Positions 13,422 to 50,410 of a DNA stretch of 64,000 bases are shown here, one piece after another (the first letter of the stretch is position 1; every line of letters begins with the position of its first letter). Below the pieces are notes generated by a model. The model was not told the DNA's origin and searched no databases. It saw only the letters and a program-made list of their open reading frames with translations. A program made the position numbers and the translations under genes. The stretch covers positions 672,001-736,000 of the forward strand of contig CM000435.1 in NCBI GenBank assembly GCA_000165345.1, written 5' to 3'.

Positions 13422-14314
13422 GAGGCTAGTAGTCAATTCCCAGGCAGAAATAACATAAAAGTTCACAATAAATTAGCTCAATAATAGATTAAGATAGGAC
13501 ATTAATTACCAATTAAACAATTTTAGACATAAAAACTATTTCTTGAAAATAATTTGGATAATATTTATTGGAATTAGCTTGAATAAAAGTTCGAAAAAAA
13601 TTCAAATATTAATTTCAGAGTAATAACTAGTTAACAATGACTAAAAATAAAGAATTTATTTTTGGGTTTAAAATAATAAATTTATTACCTTTTAGCTTTC
13701 TCGAGGAATGATAATATGTCTTGAAGATCATTACATTAATTCTAAGACGATTATTTCAAACTCAAGAATATTAAGCAAAGGAGACAATGACCACTTTAAT
13801 TGAAAGAATAAAACATATTCAATAGGTAGTTTAATAATTTCCTTTATAGTTAAATCGTAAAAAAATCAATATAATAACGGCCAACTTACAGCGTATTAGA
13901 AATAATCATCTTGGTCTAAATCTAAGATTAAGAAAAGAAGTTGCATTAGAGAATGAATAATTGCTTAAATCATGGAGATAGGAAATAAGGATAAATTCCA
14001 TTTGAAATTGAAGAGAGCTTTTACGAGAAATCGAATTGATGCCATCATATTATTAATAAATTAAGAAATTGTAAGTAAATTTCTTGATTTTATATAAGTT
14101 TATTAAACATGTGAATAAATATGAAAATGCTATGTATTTGAATTCATTTATTTTGCCCGGGGTGATAATTAGTTTTAATAAAAATGTAAAATAAAAAAAT
14201 TTGAAAAGAACAAAAAGGAATTTTTTGCATTCTTTTATTCTTGTTCAACCTATTTAAATATTTATAATTATAGTTATTGATAAGTTCTTATTTATATTTC
14301 CAAGTTTATTAGAA

Positions 14315-14761
14315 ATGCAGGATGAATTTGTTGATCACAAGTTGGAGACGGAATTATTTTCTATTCTATCTCCTGAACTATTAAATGAAATAATGATTGA
14401 GGAATTCCCTCACATAAGACTAGGACCTTCTGTTTCACAGGTTTTAACGACTTTGACAAACGGATTTATTCAAGACGTTGTTAAGAACTCATACATAATT
14501 TCTAAACACAAAAATCACTCCGAAGTCCAAGCTGATGATATACTAGTTTATTTAAGAATGAAATACCCTGATACTAAGCTAGAAGAGTTTTGTGAAACTA
14601 TTTCACAAAGGAAAGAAGGAAGGAGCGGAGCTGGCACTTTAGAAAGTGAGGAGGGCAATGCTGTAAGTAATAGTGGATTACTATCGATTAAATTATTTAA
14701 TACAGAGAGATTTAAAAGTAATTCAAAAATAATCAACAATTTGCGGAATAGTTCAATTTAA
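14315..14761 (+). CDS. Small histone-fold protein, TAF13-like (TFIID subunit 13 / SPT3-N-like)
   Basis: SQVLTTLTNGFIQDVVKNSYIISKHKNHSEVQADDILVYLRMKYPDTKL aligns with TAF13 ...ILEDLVIEFITEMTHKAMSIGRQGRVQVEDIVFLIRKDPRKF, giving a helix-loop-helix-loop-helix histone fold. ATG verified. Confidence 0.5.
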   Translation: MQDEFVDHKLETELFSILSPELLNEIMIEEFPHIRLGPSVSQVLTTLTNGFIQDVVKNSYIISKHKNHSEVQADDILVYLRMKYPDTKLEEFCETISQRKEGRSGAGTLESEEGNAVSNSGLLSIKLFNTERFKSNSKIINNLRNSSI

Positions 14762-14843
14762 GCCTGAAGGCAGATATAAGTTTTAACATTAAAGATAAGC
14801 GGCTCTTTTTATAATAATTACACGAAGTTTAGGAATTTTCAAA

Positions 14844-15860
14844 TTGTTATCAAAAATAGAAGAAAGAAGGATCAGCCAAAGGCTGAAGCAGATCAACATA
14901 GCAAAGAATAGCGTTGGATATCAAAGGTACACAACTGCGGTGAGAAAAAATGAAAGGAAGAGAGAGTTAAGTTTTACTTGGCATCCTTCTACCCCAGATC
15001 CATACTCAAATACAAGTAAATCATGCTTTTCAGGTAGATTAAAAGAATGGAAATTGAGATTACATCTTTGGGGAAATCTTGATGATCTAGAATATAGTAA
15101 TCTAATTCAAAACAACTTAAAATTCCCACCTGGAGCAAATTCAAACCCTTTTAGTAAAGTCAATTATTTTGAAAATATTTTAGATAATGGTAATGACAAT
15201 ACGAATGAGTCATCACTTAAGTTTATTAGGTTCTCTGAACTCAGAATCTCTCCAATTAGTTTTTCCGGACAAAATTCGTTAATCAAAACTAACAGAGGCG
15301 AACGAATTAGCAAATCAGATTCTCTAGTAAATTCGATCAAGTTGTCTAGAAAAATCTTGTTGCCAAAAGTAATGGATTGTGAGAAAAGCCATGATATTAT
15401 GAAATATATCACTCTTTTCATTCCAGATAATTACAAAGGCATGCTGATATGGAAATCAACTAATTTTATACGTCATTGTGATATTATCCTTACAGCACAC
15501 AAACACCGTCTGAAAATCTTAAAGCATGGTTTATCTCTATTCGAATTTAACAAGAGGTATAATATCGATGTTTCTGGGCTAGCACACAACTCAAACAATT
15601 TTCTGAAGGATATTCAAATTAGTATATCCGGTATTGATAGCAACTCTAATAAATTATGCAAATTAAGTGATAAGCCATATAAAAACATCTGTACTCTAAT
15701 AAGTCACCAAAAAATGATTAGTCATTTTTCAAAAAAAGTAGTTTTGACTCAAAACAAGTTATTTGGTTTCAGAGAGCAAGACGTATTCAAGCTGTCTTTT
15801 GCCTATCACCCTTCCTCTATCATTTACTACAAGATCCTAGAAAAGCTACATAAGAGTTAA
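14844..15860 (+). CDS. SLBP: Histone mRNA stem-loop binding protein (SLBP)-like RNA-binding domain protein. The 5' end is unresolved: the open frame has no ATG before the RBD.
   Basis: RLKQINIAKNSVGYQRYTTAVRKNERKRELSFTWHPSTPDPYSNTSKSCFSGRLKEWKLRLHLWGN matches the SLBP RBD ([22 protein letters not shown]...[31 protein letters not shown]). The track start at 14844 is TTG, the frame opens at 14799 after TAA, and the first in-frame ATG is about 175 codons downstream, after the RBD. Confidence 0.6.
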   Translation: MLSKIEERRISQRLKQINIAKNSVGYQRYTTAVRKNERKRELSFTWHPSTPDPYSNTSKSCFSGRLKEWKLRLHLWGNLDDLEYSNLIQNNLKFPPGANSNPFSKVNYFENILDNGNDNTNESSLKFIRFSELRISPISFSGQNSLIKTNRGERISKSDSLVNSIKLSRKILLPKVMDCEKSHDIMKYITLFIPDNYKGMLIWKSTNFIRHCDIILTAHKHRLKILKHGLSLFEFNKRYNIDVSGLAHNSNNFLKDIQISISGIDSNSNKLCKLSDKPYKNICTLISHQKMISHFSKKVVLTQNKLFGFREQDVFKLSFAYHPSSIIYYKILEKLHKS

Positions 15861-21717: not shown

Positions 21718-22669
21718 TTATTGTTCATCGTCTGAAGATCGAAATTCAAATTTGTAAGAAACGCCTTGAAAAGGACTAATTGCTGTGCTTTCAGATGAAG
21801 AAACTGTTACATTAGGATAATAATTAGCATCTTGAAAGCTTCCAAGTGAATATAGAGGAAGATTTGAGCTATCTTCCATTATATGAAATGATCCAATGCC
21901 ATTTAATTCTTCTATCTGTATTCTTCTTGCAAGCTCTTCATCCGAGATTTCTGTGCGTAGAATGTTTGACTCACGATTTTCAATCTGCGATATACTTCCA
22001 TGGCATTCAGTATTAGCAGTCTCCATATTAACCGTAGTATCTATGTTTCTTGGTCGCTGGCGCCTGCCTTGGCAATTTTGTCTAGACGAATGGGCAATTA
22101 ATGAATGAGTCCACGACTTGAATGAGCTAATTATCCCTGAACTCTGATTTGAAGTGCTCTTCTTTGGATTCCTTGATCTGTTCATCTTGATTTTGTTTGC
22201 CAAGGAGCCATTCGCATTCTGCGCAGTGTGGTCCGACGAGGAGTTTTCTATAGATGCATTAGTTTTTTCACGAGCTTCCCCTCTTTGTAATGCTAGTTGA
22301 TTAAGGTCTGTATCTAATTCAAAAGATTCAGCTAAATTGCTATTAAATTCATTATCATATCCTGGATACCGGCTATTCATCTCGTGATTCGACCTTTGCG
22401 CTTCCGAAGATGAAGTGGGGCGATTTACTATAAAGTTATTTGAACAATTAACTCTACTAGCGCCTAAGCTTGCATCCTCCTGATTTGATCTAGCCGAAAG
22501 GGACACCGACCCATCCGTAAGGACCCCCTTTTGATTAAGATATTTTTTCCTTTGTTTATCTCTATATTCGGCTATTTCCGATTCAATATCATAGCTTTGT
22601 TGTAATTCTATAAGCTCGATTCAAGTCGAAAGTTGTAAAAAGTAGCAACTTACTTTGGCCATTATGCAT
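21718..22669 (-). CDS. Ser/Asn-rich hypothetical protein; proposed join(21718..22607, 22654..22669) with a 16-nt first coding exon and a 46-nt intron
   Basis: The track start at 22504-22506 is GTG, and the frame stays open upstream to 22620 with no ATG. An upstream ATGCATAATGGCCAAA is followed by GTAAGTTGC...GCTTATAG and, in phase 1, joins exactly into the ORF frame (MHNGQK|LQQSYDIESEIAEYRDKQRKKYLNQKGVLTDGSVSLSARSNQ...). Confidence 0.45.
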
Positions 22670-39116: not shown

Positions 39117-42100
39117 ATGATAAACCCGATAACGCTACTAAATGCAAACATAAAAACTCCAAAGATTTTTAATAAGAAAAAAAAAGATAATGAGAATCAA
39201 GATAATGATGATGCTGAAGTAATTGTCAAAAAGACTCCAGATGATACCGATGAGGTAAGTATATAATTAATATTGTTTTCCATTATTATTCTTTTAGAAT
39301 GCAGTAGAGCTTGAAAGACCTCAATTTATCGATGAACTAGCAAATGTTCCAGTATTGAGTATGGACGATTTTATAAGCAAATATGTTGAAGAAGATGAAG
39401 CTATTGATAATGAATATGAATCTGTTGACGAACTTGATGCGATAAATTTTGAAGAAAATAATTCTGGTACTAATGGTAAGCTTCCAAGAATTTATATTAT
39501 TAGAACTCATTAAGTATTTAGACAAGTCATATATGCTTCAAAGGAGATGGAAAGTCGTAATATGGGACTTAAGCATTGAAAACTTATGTGATGAAGAGGC
39601 CAGCGTATTTATAGAAATAGATTTTGGAACATCGAGAGAGGAATTTCGCGTGCAACTTGAGTCAAAAGAATATATCTTGTCAAATGGAGAACTCAAACAT
39701 CGCCTGAGAACACCAATTGTGCATAGCCTCCTTAAAGATAAGCCTCAAAAAATAAAGTTTCATCCTTCTTTTGAATATAGAGGCTCTTATTATGATATTG
39801 AAAAAGAAAAACTCAAGCTTTCTGCCTGGAAATATCATAATTTTAGACTTAATACATTAGACGCGATGTTTGAAATCAAATTAAATACATGCGCAAATTC
39901 TGATCTTCAGCATCAGTGCTACTTGATGAGATTAGGTGATGGTCATACATTGGAAAAGGTTTATAGGATTTGTTTCAATCTATACTTCCAGGAAATTTAT
40001 GATTTTCAGCTTTCACTTGATCGATTTGAAATAAAGGAACTATTAACTCATGATAATATTATGGACAGAGTTAGTTCTCTAAAAAAAAAGGCCGTTGAAA
40101 AAGTTCCTTTTAATAATAATTCTTTCTTTGAAATAGATACTGAAATTAATTCAAATGAATTCTTGTCAGAATTTACCATTATTGAAAATACTGAATTTGA
40201 AAGTATCAATAAAAGTAGATATCGAAATTTATTGGGAAATAACAATAGGATAGGTAATGATCCAATTAAAAAAATATTTCAATATATTTCCTTTAATTAT
40301 AGTGAAAATGAAATGGGGAATGTATTAACCGAAAAATCTAAAGCTAATAGTAAAACATTGAATTTAGAAAGTTCGATAAATGAACAAGAGAATAAAGGGA
40401 AAATCGAATCCAATATAGTTGATCAAAGAAAAGGAATCTGGGATACTTTCTTGGGGTTTATTGGCCTGCTAAAGGAAGATCAAAAAGATAATATTCAAAA
40501 ACTTGATAGTTTATTAATAGAAGCAGAACTAGACCAAGCAAAACTCCATCCTGCTAATTGTAGCCCAAGATTAAAAATTAACATAACCTGGCCTACAACG
40601 TTGAAAAATTATACTATGTATAGCAACATACAAAAAGGTACCAATTGGCCTGTATGGGAAAACCTAGGATCAATTTATTTGCGAGGAACAATAGCAGATT
40701 TGGAAAATTGTTTTATTGATATAGATGTCATTGATAATAATAAAGACAAAACAATAAACTCACAGGCAAGAACTCATATCCCACTAAAAGGATTGATCGA
40801 GACTAATACAGTTATTGAATCAAATCTATCTGAACCTCTGTGGTTAGCAGAAAAAGTAAAAAAAACTGAAGAGCGTAGAATACTTGCTACTTGGGAATTT
40901 GGGATGATTACAGGAAATATTTCATTCAAGAATTATCCTTCACAACGGCAGAAAGGGAATTTTATTCATTTTGTAAAAGATAGATTATATTTAATGATTA
41001 AAATAATCAAAGTTGACAATATTATAACTTTTGAGAATTTAGAAAATACTCTAGTTAACATTTCAATCACTCATCAAGGGTTAACCTCAAAGTCTAATTC
41101 CAATATTTGTAGCAGTTTAAAAGACAGACCAATAGATGATTACATTATTTTACCATTGCAGTTACCACCAATATCAGAACTTTACTTTTTTCACTTAGAG
41201 AGTTTGGGAGAGATTTATATAGACTTATGGGTTACTTCAGATAATCAAAGCGGTTCTAAAATGCAACATGCAGGATTTACTTCGTTCACAATTTGGGACA
41301 CAATATTTTCTATCAAAGGCGCAAAAAGACCAACATCAGAAAGATATTATAGTTCTTATACATCTGGCTCAAATGAAAAGTTAAAGGTAAGAGTATTGGA
41401 ACAAGAAGTCCCGTTAAAATTCCTTTTCCCAACAGATAGAGTTGCTAATATTTCCTTTGAAGCATTTATTACTCCAGATATATTATCTATAAAACCAAAG
41501 GGTAATCAAGCAATTTGTTCAAAAGATACTGGAATATCTGAAAAAATTGACATTTTTTTAAGAAGTCGAGTAGAACTTTCACCGAGTCAAGCACCAAAAG
41601 TATATCAAAACGAAAAAGCTTCTATTGAGGTAACATTAATTAGTAAACTAGGCACAGGAATAATTGGGAGATTCTTTATATTTTCTTCTTTTAATCATAG
41701 AGGAAATGAGCTTATGCTTACACAATTCGTTAGACCAATTCCTGCGCCAAGTGGTATTATTACTCCAAGAGCAATATTTCATTTTGTAAGATGCATCCCC
41801 TTCATTAATACAAGTTTTAGAGAACCTCCAAAAAGAACAAGAGACAAGTTTAACAATGAAACGTCTAAAAATGATTCTTTAAAAAGGGGTAGTCAAGAAT
41901 CCAAAAGCGCATATTCGTTTGATAAGTCACATTATTGGTTCACCCCAGACTTTACACTACTGAGTAATGGGGGTGGAGTTATTGACCATTGCCTTTTGCA
42001 TGTTTCCTTATTGTTAAAGCAAAAAATTCAAGCTTTCGTATGTATTGGCACAGTTGCTGGGGGGCATTTTCATTCTTGGGTAATGTCATGGCACTTCAGC

Positions 42101-44437
42101 GAAGTAGATAATAGCACATATATCAAATTCTGGGAAGTAACAACAGGACAAATCTATATACTAAAAAATAGGTTTATTTCCCAACAAAGAGCTCGCGAGG
42201 TCACTTTGAGATTTAGGAAGAGGGAACGCCTTTTATCTGCCGGAGTTGAGCCACAAAGTAATAGTGCACATATAAAGACGATAAAACTACCATATAGAAG
42301 TATTGACACTATTTTTAATGAAATAAATATTTGGTATAATGTTCAAGAAAATATAAATCCGGGGTCAATATTTTTTGATCTATGGAATGGTTCATTATTT
42401 ATTTCGTGTACGAATACGCCTTTAGTTCATAATCCTGGGTTCCGAAGCCAGCCATATTCATCAATATTAAACAAATCAACCATTAAAAATATGAAGAATC
42501 TATTAAAAAATATACTACATTATGAGATTCAATCTCGTAGGAGTGCACAGAATCTCGGAACAAGATGGAATATGGACCCAACGTTAAATCTTTTTTTGGA
42601 AAAAGGTCTGGAAATCATAGAGCTTTCCGAAATATCGAGCGAAGAAGAATATCCTGACGTTATGACAAAATTTAGTGACTGGAAGTTTGCCATGGAATCA
42701 AAAGTTCCATTAATGCATAGAGTGTTGGGATTTCCACTCTCATTTAATCATGCAAACCCAAAAATAATTGCGGAAACAGTTTTAGGGAAACTTGAAATTT
42801 TATTTACAAGAGATAAATCAGCAACTTTGACTATTGCAGTTTTAATTAATGGCTATCCAAATCATGTTTTGTGTTGTAGAATATTCATTTTGGTTATTCA
42901 AAAAGTTAGCGAAAGAGAAAGGAAAAAAATTTTGGAAAGGCAAGAGAAAAAAAAATTGAAACAGGAGAAATCATTTAAAAACGAGAAATCAAATTCATTA
43001 AAGTTAGATTTAAAAAGTTCTAAATTTGAAGAAAATAATGATATTAGCCAGGCTAACATTAATTATCAAGATGGATTTAACATAGAAAATAATAATCAAA
43101 TTATTAGCGAAGACACAAAAAAAGATGTACATAGTAGTGTTCCATTGGTGACTGCTGACTTCATAGGTATATTAGACAAAGAAAATAAGATGATACGGAA
43201 AAGAAGAGTAGCCTTACCTGAAGGTAGCATTTCTGGAAATCTTTGGATTTCAAAAAAAATTAAGGATGATGGAAATTTTCGGTACTATATTGAAGGAATT
43301 GAAAATTCTGTCAGTGAAAGTTTAAATATATCAAAAAATAGAGTATGTGCAACTGAGTTGAATTATGAAGGTCAAAGAGTGGGGTTTGCCATTTTACCTG
43401 GTCTAAATGATGATGAAATGAGTCCTTTAGACTTGATGTATGAAATGGCTTTAAAGGTGGACGAATTATTGAAATCAGACAAAAACTTTATCGAATTTAC
43501 CGGGGGGGATGCTGTACTGGAATGGGATTATGAACAAATGGAAAGTGGAGGAGAGGATGAGGAAGCGATCCAATACATAGAAAATGAAGATAATTCTGAT
43601 GTCCAATCAGAAATAAGCGAATTTGAAGAAGACTTGAGCGAAGAAGAGCTTGATGAAACACTTGAAAGTGAATCAGAAGAAAACACAGAAAATATTGAGT
43701 CAGAAAATGAAGACGATATAAATTGTTTAAGTTCTAATAGTTCTAGCTCAATATCGAATACATTTTCGAGCTTGGTCGAAGAAAATGAACAAAATACAAC
43801 TTCAAGACATCTATTGAAAAGAGAATCAAATGAAGATTTCAATTCCGATATTTCAAATGGATTTTCTGATACTTCAGTAAAAAATGGAATAAAAACAGTA
43901 AGGTTTGAAGTAAAGGAGAATTCTGATAATTTAAATAGTTCAAAAAATAACCTCAAAACCAAAATAAGTTCAAGTGTTTCTGAAAAAAAGAATCTGAAAA
44001 GGTTTACAAAAACGGGGAAATATATAATTTATAGACGCCCAGAATATGAACAATCAAAAATAGTTAGCAAAGAGCTCATAAATTCCGATACAATTACTAG
44101 CGACTTATCAGTATTTCCGGCTGCAACATTAGCAATTAGCTTAGCAAGAGGCCATTCTGAGATAAGAGAAAGCGGATTGTTAAGTGCAAACAAGGAGACA
44201 TATTACAACATAGAAAAAAGTAGGTACATCAAAAAAACAGATAACTCTGGAAATAAAATGCTTACTCATTCGAGTTCAAACGACTTACTTTCTAATATGT
44301 TTTATAAAGGAAACTATAATGCATTTGCGCAAACATTAAATAAAAAAAATTCAACAAATAATGAAATGATTAACTCAATAAAGGCTAACAAACGTTCAAT
44401 ACCTAGAGCAAACTCTATTACCTTTAGAAGAAACTAA
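39117..44437 (+). CDS. Large hypothetical protein (about 1750 aa) with C2-like beta-sandwich region(s) and an acidic Glu/Ser-rich C-terminal segment; proposed join(39117..39254, 39298..39475, 39504..44437)
   Basis: The track ORF 39449..44437 starts at an ATG inside proposed exon 2 but in a different frame from that exon (through intron 2, its frame is the same as exon 3's). Upstream lie two in-phase exons: MINPITLLNANIKTPKIFNKKKKDNENQDNDDAEVIVKKTPDDTDE | GTAAGTAT..CTTTTAG (43 nt) | NAVELERPQFIDELANVPVLSMDDFISKYVEEDEAIDNEYESVDELDAINFEENNSGTN(G) | GTAAGCTT..ATTATTAG (28 nt) | ELIKYLDKSYMLQRRWKVVIWDLSIENL... C2-like segments include RWKVVIWDLSIENLCDEEASVFIEIDFG. Confidence 0.5.
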
Positions 44438-46489: not shown

Positions 46490-46754
46490 TCTAGATAAAA
46501 TTTTTATTAGTTCTTTCTGGCGATGTATAAAATCGCGAATAATAACTTTACCAATTATTTGGATTCACTATTTTGCATATTTATGGAGGGGTTAGATTTG
46601 ATTTTTTTTGAGGGGAGCTGGTTTATTTTTTAAATAATTCTTCTACTAAGAAGAATAATGTAATTAATAAGATATCATACTATTTCCAAGTTAATTGATT
46701 GGAAAATACTATATTTTACCCATAAATATTACTCAAAACTTTGATCGGTTAGTT

Positions 46755-49700
46755 ATGAATGTATCTTTCCCGACCATTTCAAAGATAGTAAAACAAGAAG
46801 AAAATAATTATGTATTTTTTGGTGAAAAGGTAAGCTAATCATATTTTAATTTTATAGCCAGTACATTCAATCATTTTAGATAAGTATTCGTGCCTGCAGC
46901 CAAAGCTGTGAATATCTAACGGTTTTTCAAGATAATGAATTTTGTGGGGAAAACTACAAACTGGGACTTTCAAACTTGGGCAGTTTTGAACATTTTGATT
47001 CAATATATAAAAGAAGTGGTTTTGGAGAAAAGTTCAAATTTTACCGAAATTTATTTTTAAATTCAGAATTTTATTTATTAAAATTAGATCATTTGTTAAT
47101 TAATTCTTGTAATGAAAAAGAGCATATTCAATATGGTGATCAATTCTATATATCATCTTTTATTCATGACGAAGTGTTTATAGTTGGATTTGAACAAACT
47201 TCTGGTAAATTTATCTTATCTAAATTTGAAGAAATTTCTAAATCTCTGAATAATAATAACGGATCAAATGATTTCCTCATAAAGAAATATCAGTGGTCAC
47301 TAGAAAAAATAGCAATTACAAAAGATGAGTCAATCCTAGGAGGGATTAGTAATTCCTCCATTCCAAACGCGCATTCGGTGAAATATAATGAAATATTCAC
47401 AATTAAATTCAATGGTGAGCACATTGTTTCTACTAACGCAATTAATACTAACTTAAAAATGCAATTCAGCCAATTGTCTATTGGTAATACTTCTATCTCT
47501 GGAAGAGGTAGCTATTGGACAATCATTCCATTAAAAATTGAAGGAACGGTATATCCAAACTGGTTTTTGATGAAGGAAATTCTGAAAAATAAGAAAAATA
47601 ACACTCTGAAATTTTTGGATAGCAAAATAATTGAAAAGCTGATTTATAATCAGTCTAATTGCTCTAAAGTAAAAATAGAACCAATTCAATTGGAAACTTT
47701 CGAATTAGTTCTGAATCGCCCAATTGGTTGGGATAAACCTAGTATTAATTTTTCTGAAAATAAATTGACTTTAAATACTTCAAATAAATTTCTATCAAAA
47801 TCTGTAATTTCGCTTCCTAGTATTACTGGTTTTGTATTTGACCATATGGAGATTGGCATAAATAACACTATAAAGCATAATATAATTCCGAATAATCTCA
47901 GTAGTTTTTCAGTAAAAATACAGGAACAATTAATACTTGAAGATATTTTGAACTGTTTAATATGTAATAATGGTAATTACATCAAAGTTACTGAACAAAT
48001 AATTGAATTTTTTCACAACTGTGAGCATCTAGATTTTGTCTCAGAAGATTTATATATATTTGAAATCAATTCAACTTGTAATGAAAAATATCTGAATCTG
48101 CATTTTATTTCTGGAAGAGAAGGGATATCAGCATTTTCCCACCAAATTTTTGATGATCCCAGTAATTTACAATATATATATAAAGATATGATTAACAATA
48201 AAATTCTTGAAGAATCAAAGCCTGAAAATACTTTGGATGATTTACTTGAAATAAAGAACATTTTGCCTGCGAATATTATCAAAAAAAATCCTTCTCTTTA
48301 TCCGCTTTCGTACAAAACTTTAGAACTATCTTCTTTGCATAGAAGAATAAGGAAGTTTTTAAAGGTTCACGAGAGTGGCAATTCTCAATTTGGAATTATT
48401 TCAAACACATTATGTGATTCTTTCCGCGAACTTTTGAAGCATTTTATGATTAAAATTACAAAGTTTGAATCATACCTAAGAAAAGGGCAGCTCACAGTTC
48501 AAAATATATGTACATACTCTCAACAGGCGTTAATTACTTTAAAAGCTTTGGATTTAATCTCAGCTCAAGTCTTACATAAAAAAGGGTGTGAAATTATTGA
48601 CCAAGTATATAAAATTGCAAATAACGAATTTAAAGGCGAAGAATCATCTCAGAAAATTGCAAATTTTGTTTTCAATCAAGTTTTTCTTTCTTGGTTTAAA
48701 CACTTTTTAACGCCCTGGTTAAAATTTGGAACTGTTTTTGATCATTTTTCAGAATTTATTGATTACAATTTAAGTACTAAAAAAAAAAAGTTTAATAAAG
48801 AAAATATTCACTCGAAAAATTTTTACAGAGAAAAAGAAAGAAAAATATATTTTATACTTCCTTCATTTATGCATGAATTAGTTGAGAAAGTCAATTATAT
48901 TGGCTTAGTTAGTCATTTTGTTTCTCATATCAACCATTTGCATAGTCAAAATCTGTCTTTTGACACAGTGAGGGAAAATAGAGTGTTAAATTGTAAAAAA
49001 TTAGAAAATACATTGGAACAAATGTTACACTCTCTGAGCAATAAATCTGATTTAATAAGAAATGAAGAAGTTAAATTATATATCAACGCAATGTTTTTTG
49101 AATCACAACTATTAATTTACAGTGTTTGCAACTCAATTACCGATGTCAGTTATTGCATTAATAAATTCTATGAAATATTTTTTTGTGCAAATGATTCTCT
49201 CATTCAAGAATTCATCGAACACATTCACAAGTTAGGGTTTAGAGGGGAAAGAGCTGACTGTAATTCGTCTAGTAATATCACACGTAAATGGAGTGAACTT
49301 ATGGTTAAATATTATGGAGTATTAAATGATTCAGATAAATCTGATCGATTTGTTTGTAAAGTTGAGAAAAATTTGATTACAGAATCGGTAACAGAGGAGT
49401 TATTTAATCCTGTAAAGTGGGAAATAAAATCAGTTTTATTTGAAGAAGATTTTAAGTTTATACAAAAAGATAAACAAAATATCTCATGTTCGGATGCATT
49501 CAAATATTTAACAATTGAATTTCATGAAATAAAGACATTCGGTTTGATTTGGCCTAGAGAATTGCTGTGTAAATACGAGTTAATTTTTAGATTAGTTTTC
49601 CATTTAAAATATATTAATTATTTGCTTAACAATATTTGGATACTACATCAAACTTCAAATAATTTGGACTGTGAAATGAGCAAAAAAAAGCCTAATGTTT

Positions 49701-50410
49701 CAATTAGTGGGTTAATATATAAGTCTTACTTTTTAAGACAAAAAATGCTTTTGTTAACAACAGGAATTTTAGAATACATCTATCAAGATATAATTATACC
49801 TAAATGGGGCAAAATGATGCAAAATATAAAAAATATTTCAACTTTGGAAGAACTAAATTCGTATCAAGACCGTTTACTCAATGAAATACTAACACTATGT
49901 TTCTTCTCAGAGGGAGAACTATTACATTCACTATATATGATTTTGTCGCTTTGTTACCTATTTGCTAGCCACTCCAACCTACTGAATATTTATGGGTTTT
50001 GCGAATTAGAAAAAAAGATTTCACACAAAATAACAGGAACAAAAAACGAAAAATATGAGGAGAATGCGCATATTTCAACATATGGCAGAAATCTTTGTAA
50101 AAAAGGCGAATTTGAGAGGTCAAACGACATATTTTGCACCAACACGCATATCAAGGGTTTACTAATCGATACTACATATATTAATTTGGTAGAAAAATTT
50201 AGTTCAAAATTTGAATCGCTTCTTTCCAGATTTTTCAACAATATATCCAACTGCAAGAGCAAAAACATTAATCTAATAAATAAATTATTGTTAAAGTTGA
50301 ACTTTAACAGCTTCTACATAGGAAAAATTCCTGCCAGCGTTGAAACTTGGGGGGAATACACACTGAATGAAAATTCCTCATGCGATGAATTAATTGACGA
50401 AAGCGGATAG
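46755..50410 (+). CDS. Gamma-tubulin complex component (Spc97/Spc98 GCP family)-like protein; proposed join(46755..46829, 46880..50410)
   Basis: A GRIP1-like motif, FNQVFLSWFKHFLTPWLKFGTVFDHFSEFI, matches the GCP signature P-[YW]-L-x-x-W-[IL]-x-x-G-x-[LI]-x-D-x-[YF]-x-EFF. The track start at 46976 is TTG and there is no ATG for about 160 codons. Upstream exon MNVSFPTISKIVKQEENNYVFFGEK, then GTAAGCTAATC...CATTTTAG (50 nt, phase 0), joins exactly at the first codon after the in-frame TAG. Confidence 0.55.

Follow-up and report, generated by a model that had tools for sequence, protein, structure and literature searches.

The question raised by this locus is where translation begins for a long open reading frame (ORF) that contains no ATG codon near its 5' end. 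The ORF lies at 46976..50410 on the plus strand of a 64,000-nucleotide stretch of Cryptosporidium parvum DNA (GenBank assembly GCA_000165345.1, contig CM000435.1, positions 672,001 to 736,000 of the forward strand), hereafter the window, in whose numbering all coordinates are given, and which is ~30% G+C with long ORFs tightly packed on both strands. As the initial annotation of the sequence had reported, an ORF call of the bacterial type opens this frame with a TTG codon (46976..46978) and yields a product of 1144 amino acids (aa); the same annotation proposed a relationship to gamma-tubulin complex proteins, and the need for a 75-nucleotide (nt) 5' exon and a 50-nt intron. Our analysis indicates that 46755-50410 (plus strand) is, with high probability, a two-exon C. 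parvum gene for the GCP2/Spc97 protein of the gamma-tubulin small complex.

The first in-frame ATG of the long frame (47459..47461) encodes Met219 of the full-length product, and is the start of an older 983-aa model. It lies 193 codons past 46880 and 161 codons past the TTG at 46976, with none in-frame earlier, in keeping with the distance of about 160 codons first noted. The long frame opens at 46880, directly after a TAG (46877-46879) that doubles as an in-frame stop and as the 3' end of the proposed intron, exactly as had been suggested. Upstream, exon 1 (46755..46829, plus strand, 75 nt, phase 0) supplies the initiator ATG (46755-46757) and codons 1-25, with the product MNVSFPTISKIVKQEENNYVFFGEK, from which the tryptic peptide QEENNYVFFGEK is expected; a TAA at 46692 closes the exon-1 frame on its upstream side, and the ATG at 46755 is the sole in-frame ATG. 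The spliceosomal GT-AG intron (46830..46879, plus strand, 50 nt, 24% G+C) runs from GTAAGC to TTTTAG (GTAAGCTAATC...CATTTTAG), and exon 2 (46880..50410, plus strand, 3531 nt) carries codons 26-1201 and the TAA stop codon (50408-50410), such that the two exons joined encode a protein of 1201 aa. An in-frame TAA is present at the third codon of the intron, and translation of the intron-retaining message would read ...GEKVS* and end two codons into the intron. Unspliced RNA would thus end after 27 codons, and splicing would therefore be obligatory for the full-length product.

In length and composition the 50-nt, 24% G+C intron is typical of the introns of this species, which average 84-99 nt and 22% G+C in C. 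parvum (PMC4637869). The median length of Cryptosporidium introns is 61 nt, 84% of them open with GTAAGT, and those of C. parvum are not known to have a clear branch-point consensus (PMC2483917); the donor found here, GTAAGC, agrees with GTAAGT at 5 of 6 positions. A GT/AG pair that is compatible with the frame is on its own a weak criterion, as ~80 other combinations of an ATG exon and a GT..AG intron in the region also keep the frame open. When all such alternative models were enumerated, they were ruled out by loss of conserved coding sequence, by poor donors, or by an ATG exon that is not conserved. The 46755/46830-46879 model is singled out by its GTAAG donor and T-rich TAG acceptor, by coding conservation up to 46880, by an intron position shared among 11 lineages, and by an exact match to deposited gene models.

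The joined 1201-aa protein is, by exact-sequence look-up, letter-for-letter that of C. parvum QOY40624.1 (CPATCC_003505), WKS78993.1, and WRK33479.1, and the proposal that the 75-nt exon and 50-nt intron form the true 5' end of the gene is borne out by these records. The gene in CP141124.1 and CP029786.1 corresponds to window positions 46755-50410 with identical DNA (3656 nt, or 3606 coding plus 50), the fetched loci occurring verbatim in the window. A homology search with the joined protein returned high-scoring matches that are all from Cryptosporidium. Public records of the locus differ in name, with entries as 'Spindle pole domain containing protein', 'hypothetical protein', and 'gamma-tubulin complex component 2'. 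The deposited two-exon models derive from re-annotation projects informed by RNA sequencing (RNA-seq) (PMC4637869; 10.1101/2021.01.29.428682), of which that of 2015 used RNA-seq to add 451 introns to C. parvum Iowa (PMC4637869), and that of IOWA-ATCC introduced >1,500 evidence-based changes, among them new introns and corrections of N-termini (10.1101/2021.01.29.428682). Truncated models are also on record: 983 aa for XP_628473.1 / EAK90315.1 / UniProt Q5CYA7 (Iowa II) and TRY50363.1 (C. tyzzeri), with XP_628473.1 being the 2004 model that has no exon 1, and 761 aa for the C. hominis entries XP_665670.1 (TU502) and PPS93959.1. A start at Met219 reproduces the older length, as (50407-47459+1)/3 = 983. 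In addition, three identical 1144-aa calls made on read assemblies come from a prokaryote-style gene finder. A literature search for CPATCC_003505, XP_628473, Q5CYA7, and EAK90315 found no paper. The two-exon model is the current public model and the gene structure is already known; given the identical model in GenBank, the present finding is correct but ordinary.

Comparative data on the intron were drawn from orthologous DNA of seven annotated species, from two read assemblies that carry no annotation (L008 and L009), and from a very divergent Cryptosporidium (L010) recovered by profile search. The phase-0 intron boundary is identical in 11 lineages (C. parvum, C. hominis, C. meleagridis, chipmunk genotype I, C. 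ubiquitum, C. canis, C. felis, C. bovis, L008, L009, and L010), all of which have GT...AG termini and the same boundary context, G-x-K/R before the intron and I/T/V-x-(I/F)-R after it. Intron lengths in the 11 lineages are 50, 50, 50, 50, 57, 52, 52, 51, 52, 54, and 102 nt. Exon 1 is 75 nt in 10 lineages and 63 nt, four codons shorter, in C. bovis, and the same exon-1 peptide opens the annotated orthologues of C. hominis, C. meleagridis, chipmunk genotype I, C. ubiquitum, C. canis, and C. felis, with a shorter version in C. bovis. In 10 of the 11 lineages, a message retaining the intron would meet a stop or be shifted out of frame. Gene order is also kept, since CEP76-like, kinase, GCP2, 258-aa ORF, and kinase (minus strand) follow one another in the annotated orthologous loci of the seven species, with L010 keeping only the flanking kinases.

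The intron interrupts a conserved coding sequence that is otherwise continuous, and its position is kept whereas its sequence and length vary. Identity to C. parvum in exon 1, the intron, and the 75 nt upstream is, respectively, 0.95, 0.80, and 0.39 for C. chipmunk I, 0.87, 0.65, and 0.32 for C. ubiquitum, 0.75, 0.60, and 0.33 for C. canis, and 0.61, 0.52, and 0.24 for C. felis, the intron drifting faster than exon 1 in all four comparisons. Differences in exon 1 fall mostly at third codon positions (for instance, 5/1/13 by position against C. canis). For codons 26-100, the closest species with enough changes for a codon-position test is C. meleagridis, from which C. parvum differs by 2/3/8 changes at the three positions, affecting 9 codons synonymously and 3 non-synonymously; this third-position bias fades in more distant comparisons. 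Residues 26-218, which precede the first ATG of exon 2, are conserved among orthologues down to 33% identity, with many residues invariant in the genus and the frame open in every species. Within the otherwise fast-drifting intron, a block CAGT(A/G)(A/C)ATT (window 46857-46868, 12-23 nt before the 3' splice site) is kept in C. parvum, C. hominis, C. meleagridis, chipmunk genotype I, C. ubiquitum, and L008, and not in C. canis, C. felis, or C. bovis. This block could mark the branch region.

With regard to the protein family, the profile comparison suggested for the joined protein gave a clear match: Pfam PF04130 (GCP_C_terminal, formerly Spc97_Spc98) matches aa 880-1171 with E = 4.3e-26 and 92.5 bits against a cut-off of 25.8, placing the GRIP2 (GCP C-terminal) domain at 49442..50317 on the plus strand. 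GRIP2 is the gamma-tubulin-binding part in characterised GCPs. With a profile of eight orthologues, aa 914-1178 in the GRIP2 stretch align to GCP2 625-871 (domain i-E-value 1.1e-23), and a GRIP1 (GCP N-terminal) region, aa 495-713 (48287..48943, plus strand), aligns to GCP2 250-464 of 6tf9_RP1 (domain i-E-value 1.5e-12). The motif TPWLKFGTVFDHFSEFI, initially described as a GRIP1-like signature, indeed falls within this GRIP1 stretch, where it is aligned to GCP2 'LERWIYRGIINDPYSEFM' (...RWIYRGIINDPYSEFM). To discriminate between paralogues, the same profile was searched against all sequences of the PDB, and GCP2 chains were matched with E = 1.3e-39 to 5.7e-34, followed by GCP3 (E = 2.4e-12), GCP4 (E = 2e-11), GCP6 (E = 8e-6), and GCP5 (E = 4e-5). 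The E-values of GCP2 and the next paralogue differ by about 27 orders of magnitude, and as GCP2 chains give the best match, across both GRIP regions, the protein is assigned as a GCP2/Spc97 orthologue. On these alignments the gene product would be GCP2/Spc97 and would partner GCP3 in the gamma-tubulin small complex; its place in that Y-shaped heterotetramer, with GCP3 and two gamma-tubulins, and its role in microtubule nucleation are inferred by homology.

The part of the protein that is unusual is its N-terminus, as the first ~350 residues lie N-terminal to everything that aligns with other GCPs. When aa 1-400 were used as a profile to search 1.84 billion representative proteins, four proteins were recovered, all from Cryptosporidium and none from Toxoplasma. 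A structure model of aa 1-268 (AlphaFold2, 10 sequences) reached a predicted local distance difference test score (pLDDT) of 54, with one of five models folded, while AlphaFold2 on aa 1-400 with 8 sequences gave a pLDDT of 32 and no usable model. A MIR-type beta-trefoil is predicted at roughly aa 17-262 (46803..47590, plus strand), beginning in exon 1 and split by the intron, and a Foldseek search also gives a MIR-type beta-trefoil, with CFAP161 among the structural neighbours. At the level of sequence, Pfam at E<=1 gave no match in the N-terminal 870 residues, MIR included, and no clear three-fold internal repeat was found: an hhalign comparison was marginal (E = 0.017 and 0.039 over 13 columns), the similarity linking 'NNYVFFGEKISI', which spans the exon junction, with 'EHIQYGDQFYI' and 'VKYNEIFTIK'. 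With modest confidence, we suggest that the N-terminal ~260 residues fold as a MIR-type beta-trefoil. The predicted trefoil begins in the mini-exon and would be bisected by a start at Met219, and thus lends soft further support to exon 1. We found no description in the literature of a link between a MIR-type beta-trefoil and a GCP protein.

A more speculative proposal, which we hold only tentatively and consider somewhat improbable, is that Cryptosporidium GCP2 gained an N-terminal MIR-type beta-trefoil unseen outside the genus by sequence search, with the first strand and turn supplied by the 75-nt mini-exon, and that this predicted domain serves as a lineage-specific docking or regulatory module for the gamma-tubulin small complex. 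If so, the trefoil would act at acentriolar spindle poles or apical microtubule-organising sites, and would replace the N-terminal interface, of helical/MZT type, that serves recruitment in animals and fungi, making the N-terminus a parasite-specific handle on an essential complex. CFAP161/FAP161 is a ciliary microtubule inner protein, located on the tubulin lattice inside doublets. As this protein of the same fold contacts the tubulin lattice, direct contact of the predicted trefoil with tubulin or microtubules is conceivable.

The start of the gene could be explained in other ways. Were there no intron, a single exon read from the ATG at 47459 would encode the 983-aa protein, with 579 nt of open frame left upstream as 5' untranslated region; public databases contain such a model for both C. 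parvum Iowa II and C. tyzzeri, and introns are absent from ~90% of C. parvum genes (PMC4637869). However, across the genus the 193 codons without an ATG are conserved at the protein level, with many invariant residues and a frame open in every species, their differences from C. meleagridis are mainly third-position and synonymous, the region and exon 1 model together as one beta-trefoil that a Met219 start would cut in two, and newer RNA-seq-informed annotations have superseded the 983-aa model, all of which make a start at 47459 very unlikely. Even less credible, and close to negligible, is initiation at a non-AUG codon of the long frame such as TTG 46976, which would need no upstream exon. 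Beyond the mechanical ORF call and the three prokaryote-style 1144-aa calls there is nothing to recommend this codon: a TTG start simply follows from how bacterial ORFs are defined, the 32 codons that precede it (46880-46975) are conserved coding sequence and specify the invariant residues R29, C31, E36, Y37, T39, Y51, and N57, and in 11 lineages a conserved ATG exon with a consensus donor is found precisely at the point where the long frame closes. TTG 46976 is an artefact of the ORF definition and no start codon. Facultative splicing would be a minor addition to the two-exon model, with which it is compatible, and is improbable to a lesser degree than either of these. Here, the retained intron would give a 27-aa peptide, or re-initiation at Met219 would give GCP2 without most of the trefoil as a regulated isoform. 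Consistent with this possibility, alternative splicing has been reported in C. parvum expression data generally (10.1101/2021.01.29.428682), the donor in most lineages is GTAAGC and not the optimal GTAAGT, and retention in C. bovis stays in frame; yet introns that are short and AT-rich and have a strong GTAAG donor are normally spliced out with high efficiency.

Several points weigh against the two-exon GCP2 model itself. The 51-nt intron of C. bovis (L006 3064-3114) has no in-frame stop, so that its retention would add 17 residues and cause no truncation, and the comparative argument in that species is therefore one of homology and not of necessity. Annotations of the other species may have been copied from one another, leaving as independent evidence L008, L009, and the raw DNA of the rest; L008 and L009 weigh most, because no eukaryotic gene caller had placed an intron there. 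An exact search of JGI metagenome contigs with a spliced-junction 36-mer gave 0 matches, a result that is uninformative as C. parvum cDNA is not expected in such contigs. As for the family, PF17681, the Pfam GRIP1 model, gave no match to the C. parvum protein at E<=1, and is recorded (precomputed) for the orthologues P0004, P0006, P0008, and P0022, so that GRIP1 is recognised at the level of profiles and not in a single-sequence Pfam scan. The GCP2 assignment, moreover, comes from a profile search in one direction.

Expression of the two-exon GCP2 gene can be outlined as follows. Transcription would start somewhere in the spacer past the upstream kinase gene (46490-46754, from the kinase stop to the ATG at 46755; 265 nt, 25% G+C), and the pre-mRNA would carry one 50-nt U2-type GT-AG intron, in phase 0 after codon 25. 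Splicing would join the ATG-bearing 75-nt mini-exon to the 3531-nt exon 2, from which the 1201-aa protein would be translated; that this takes place in vivo we infer from the comparative data together with the RNA-seq-informed public annotation. By homology, the C-terminal two thirds of the protein (GRIP1 and GRIP2) would pair with GCP3, hold gamma-tubulin, and template microtubules. Elements containing GGCG or CGCG (ttctGGCGatg..., atCGCGaa) were seen by eye in the spacer at about 46515-46550, and resemble the E2F-like motifs reported upstream of Cryptosporidium cell-cycle genes.

For the gene structure as such, the present call changes nothing, as current records of C. parvum and C. hominis already contain the correct two-exon model. 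It does validate a rule in this intron-poor genome, namely that a long ATG-less head on a conserved ORF, combined with a GTAAG...TAG where the frame closes, points to an upstream exon. Truncated records persist in UniProt and RefSeq, and tagging, modelling, or aligning from them drops the N-terminal domain. What retains some biological interest is the beta-trefoil-like N-terminal extension of a GCP2 that is otherwise canonical.

Other ORFs of the window may also be 5'-incomplete. In the case of 14799-15860 (plus strand), the open frame has no ATG for 191 codons, and a histone-mRNA stem-loop-binding (SLBP) RNA-binding domain (PF15247, E = 8e-24) is found at codons 21-93, upstream of the first ATG. 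A 167-codon ORF (14258-14761) with a sub-threshold TFIID_20kDa/TAF12 histone-fold match ends 38 nt before this frame. The SLBP-like gene seems to need an upstream exon or intron, and enumeration of GT..AG models for it gave no clear winner. The CEP76-like ORF (39446-44437, plus strand) has PF24656 and PF24652 matches and encodes ~1654 aa from its first ATG, compared to 1635-1750 aa in annotated orthologues. Upstream of it (39117-39520) are an ATG at 39117 and a short intron candidate at 39255-39297 (GTAAGT...TCTTTTAG, 43 nt), and a second donor candidate, GTAAGC, is found near 39476; read by eye, this suggests at least two 5' introns in the CEP76-like gene. Lastly, a 300-codon open frame on the minus strand (21718-22620) has 80 codons before its first ATG and no Pfam match, and may be a gene with a missing 5' exon or a long leader.

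Compared to its relatives, the C. parvum protein is most simply described from the nearest outward. The deposited C. parvum records QOY40624.1, WKS78993.1, and WRK33479.1 have the same exon, intron, and product, with no difference, and the products of the C. hominis counterparts (CUV07292.1 and OLQ17972.1) are 96% identical to the C. parvum 1201-aa protein. GCP2/GCP3 of Toxoplasma gondii, a member of the same phylum, have the same expected role as the Cryptosporidium protein; both T. gondii proteins are reported to be essential and to share their localisation with gamma-tubulin (PMC12421850, citing Haase et al. 2024). For the Cryptosporidium GCP2 protein itself, no functional work was found in the literature searched. 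Against GCP2/TUBGCP2 of the vertebrate gamma-tubulin ring complex (6tf9 chain RP1, 7as4_A, and 6v6b_C) and Spc97 of the yeast gamma-tubulin small complex (5flz_A), GRIP1 and GRIP2 align in order, whereas the C. parvum protein has an insert of ~200 aa between GRIP1 and GRIP2 relative to the solved GCP2/Spc97 structures, and exceeds vertebrate GCP2 (896-930 aa) in length by ~300 residues. The N-terminal region of animal GCP2 is helical, in contrast to the beta-rich N-terminus predicted for Cryptosporidium. The known MIR-type beta-trefoils, namely the MIR domains of Pmt1/2/4, the N-terminal domains of IP3R and RyR, and CFAP161/FAP161, share 8-17% identity with the predicted Cryptosporidium domain.

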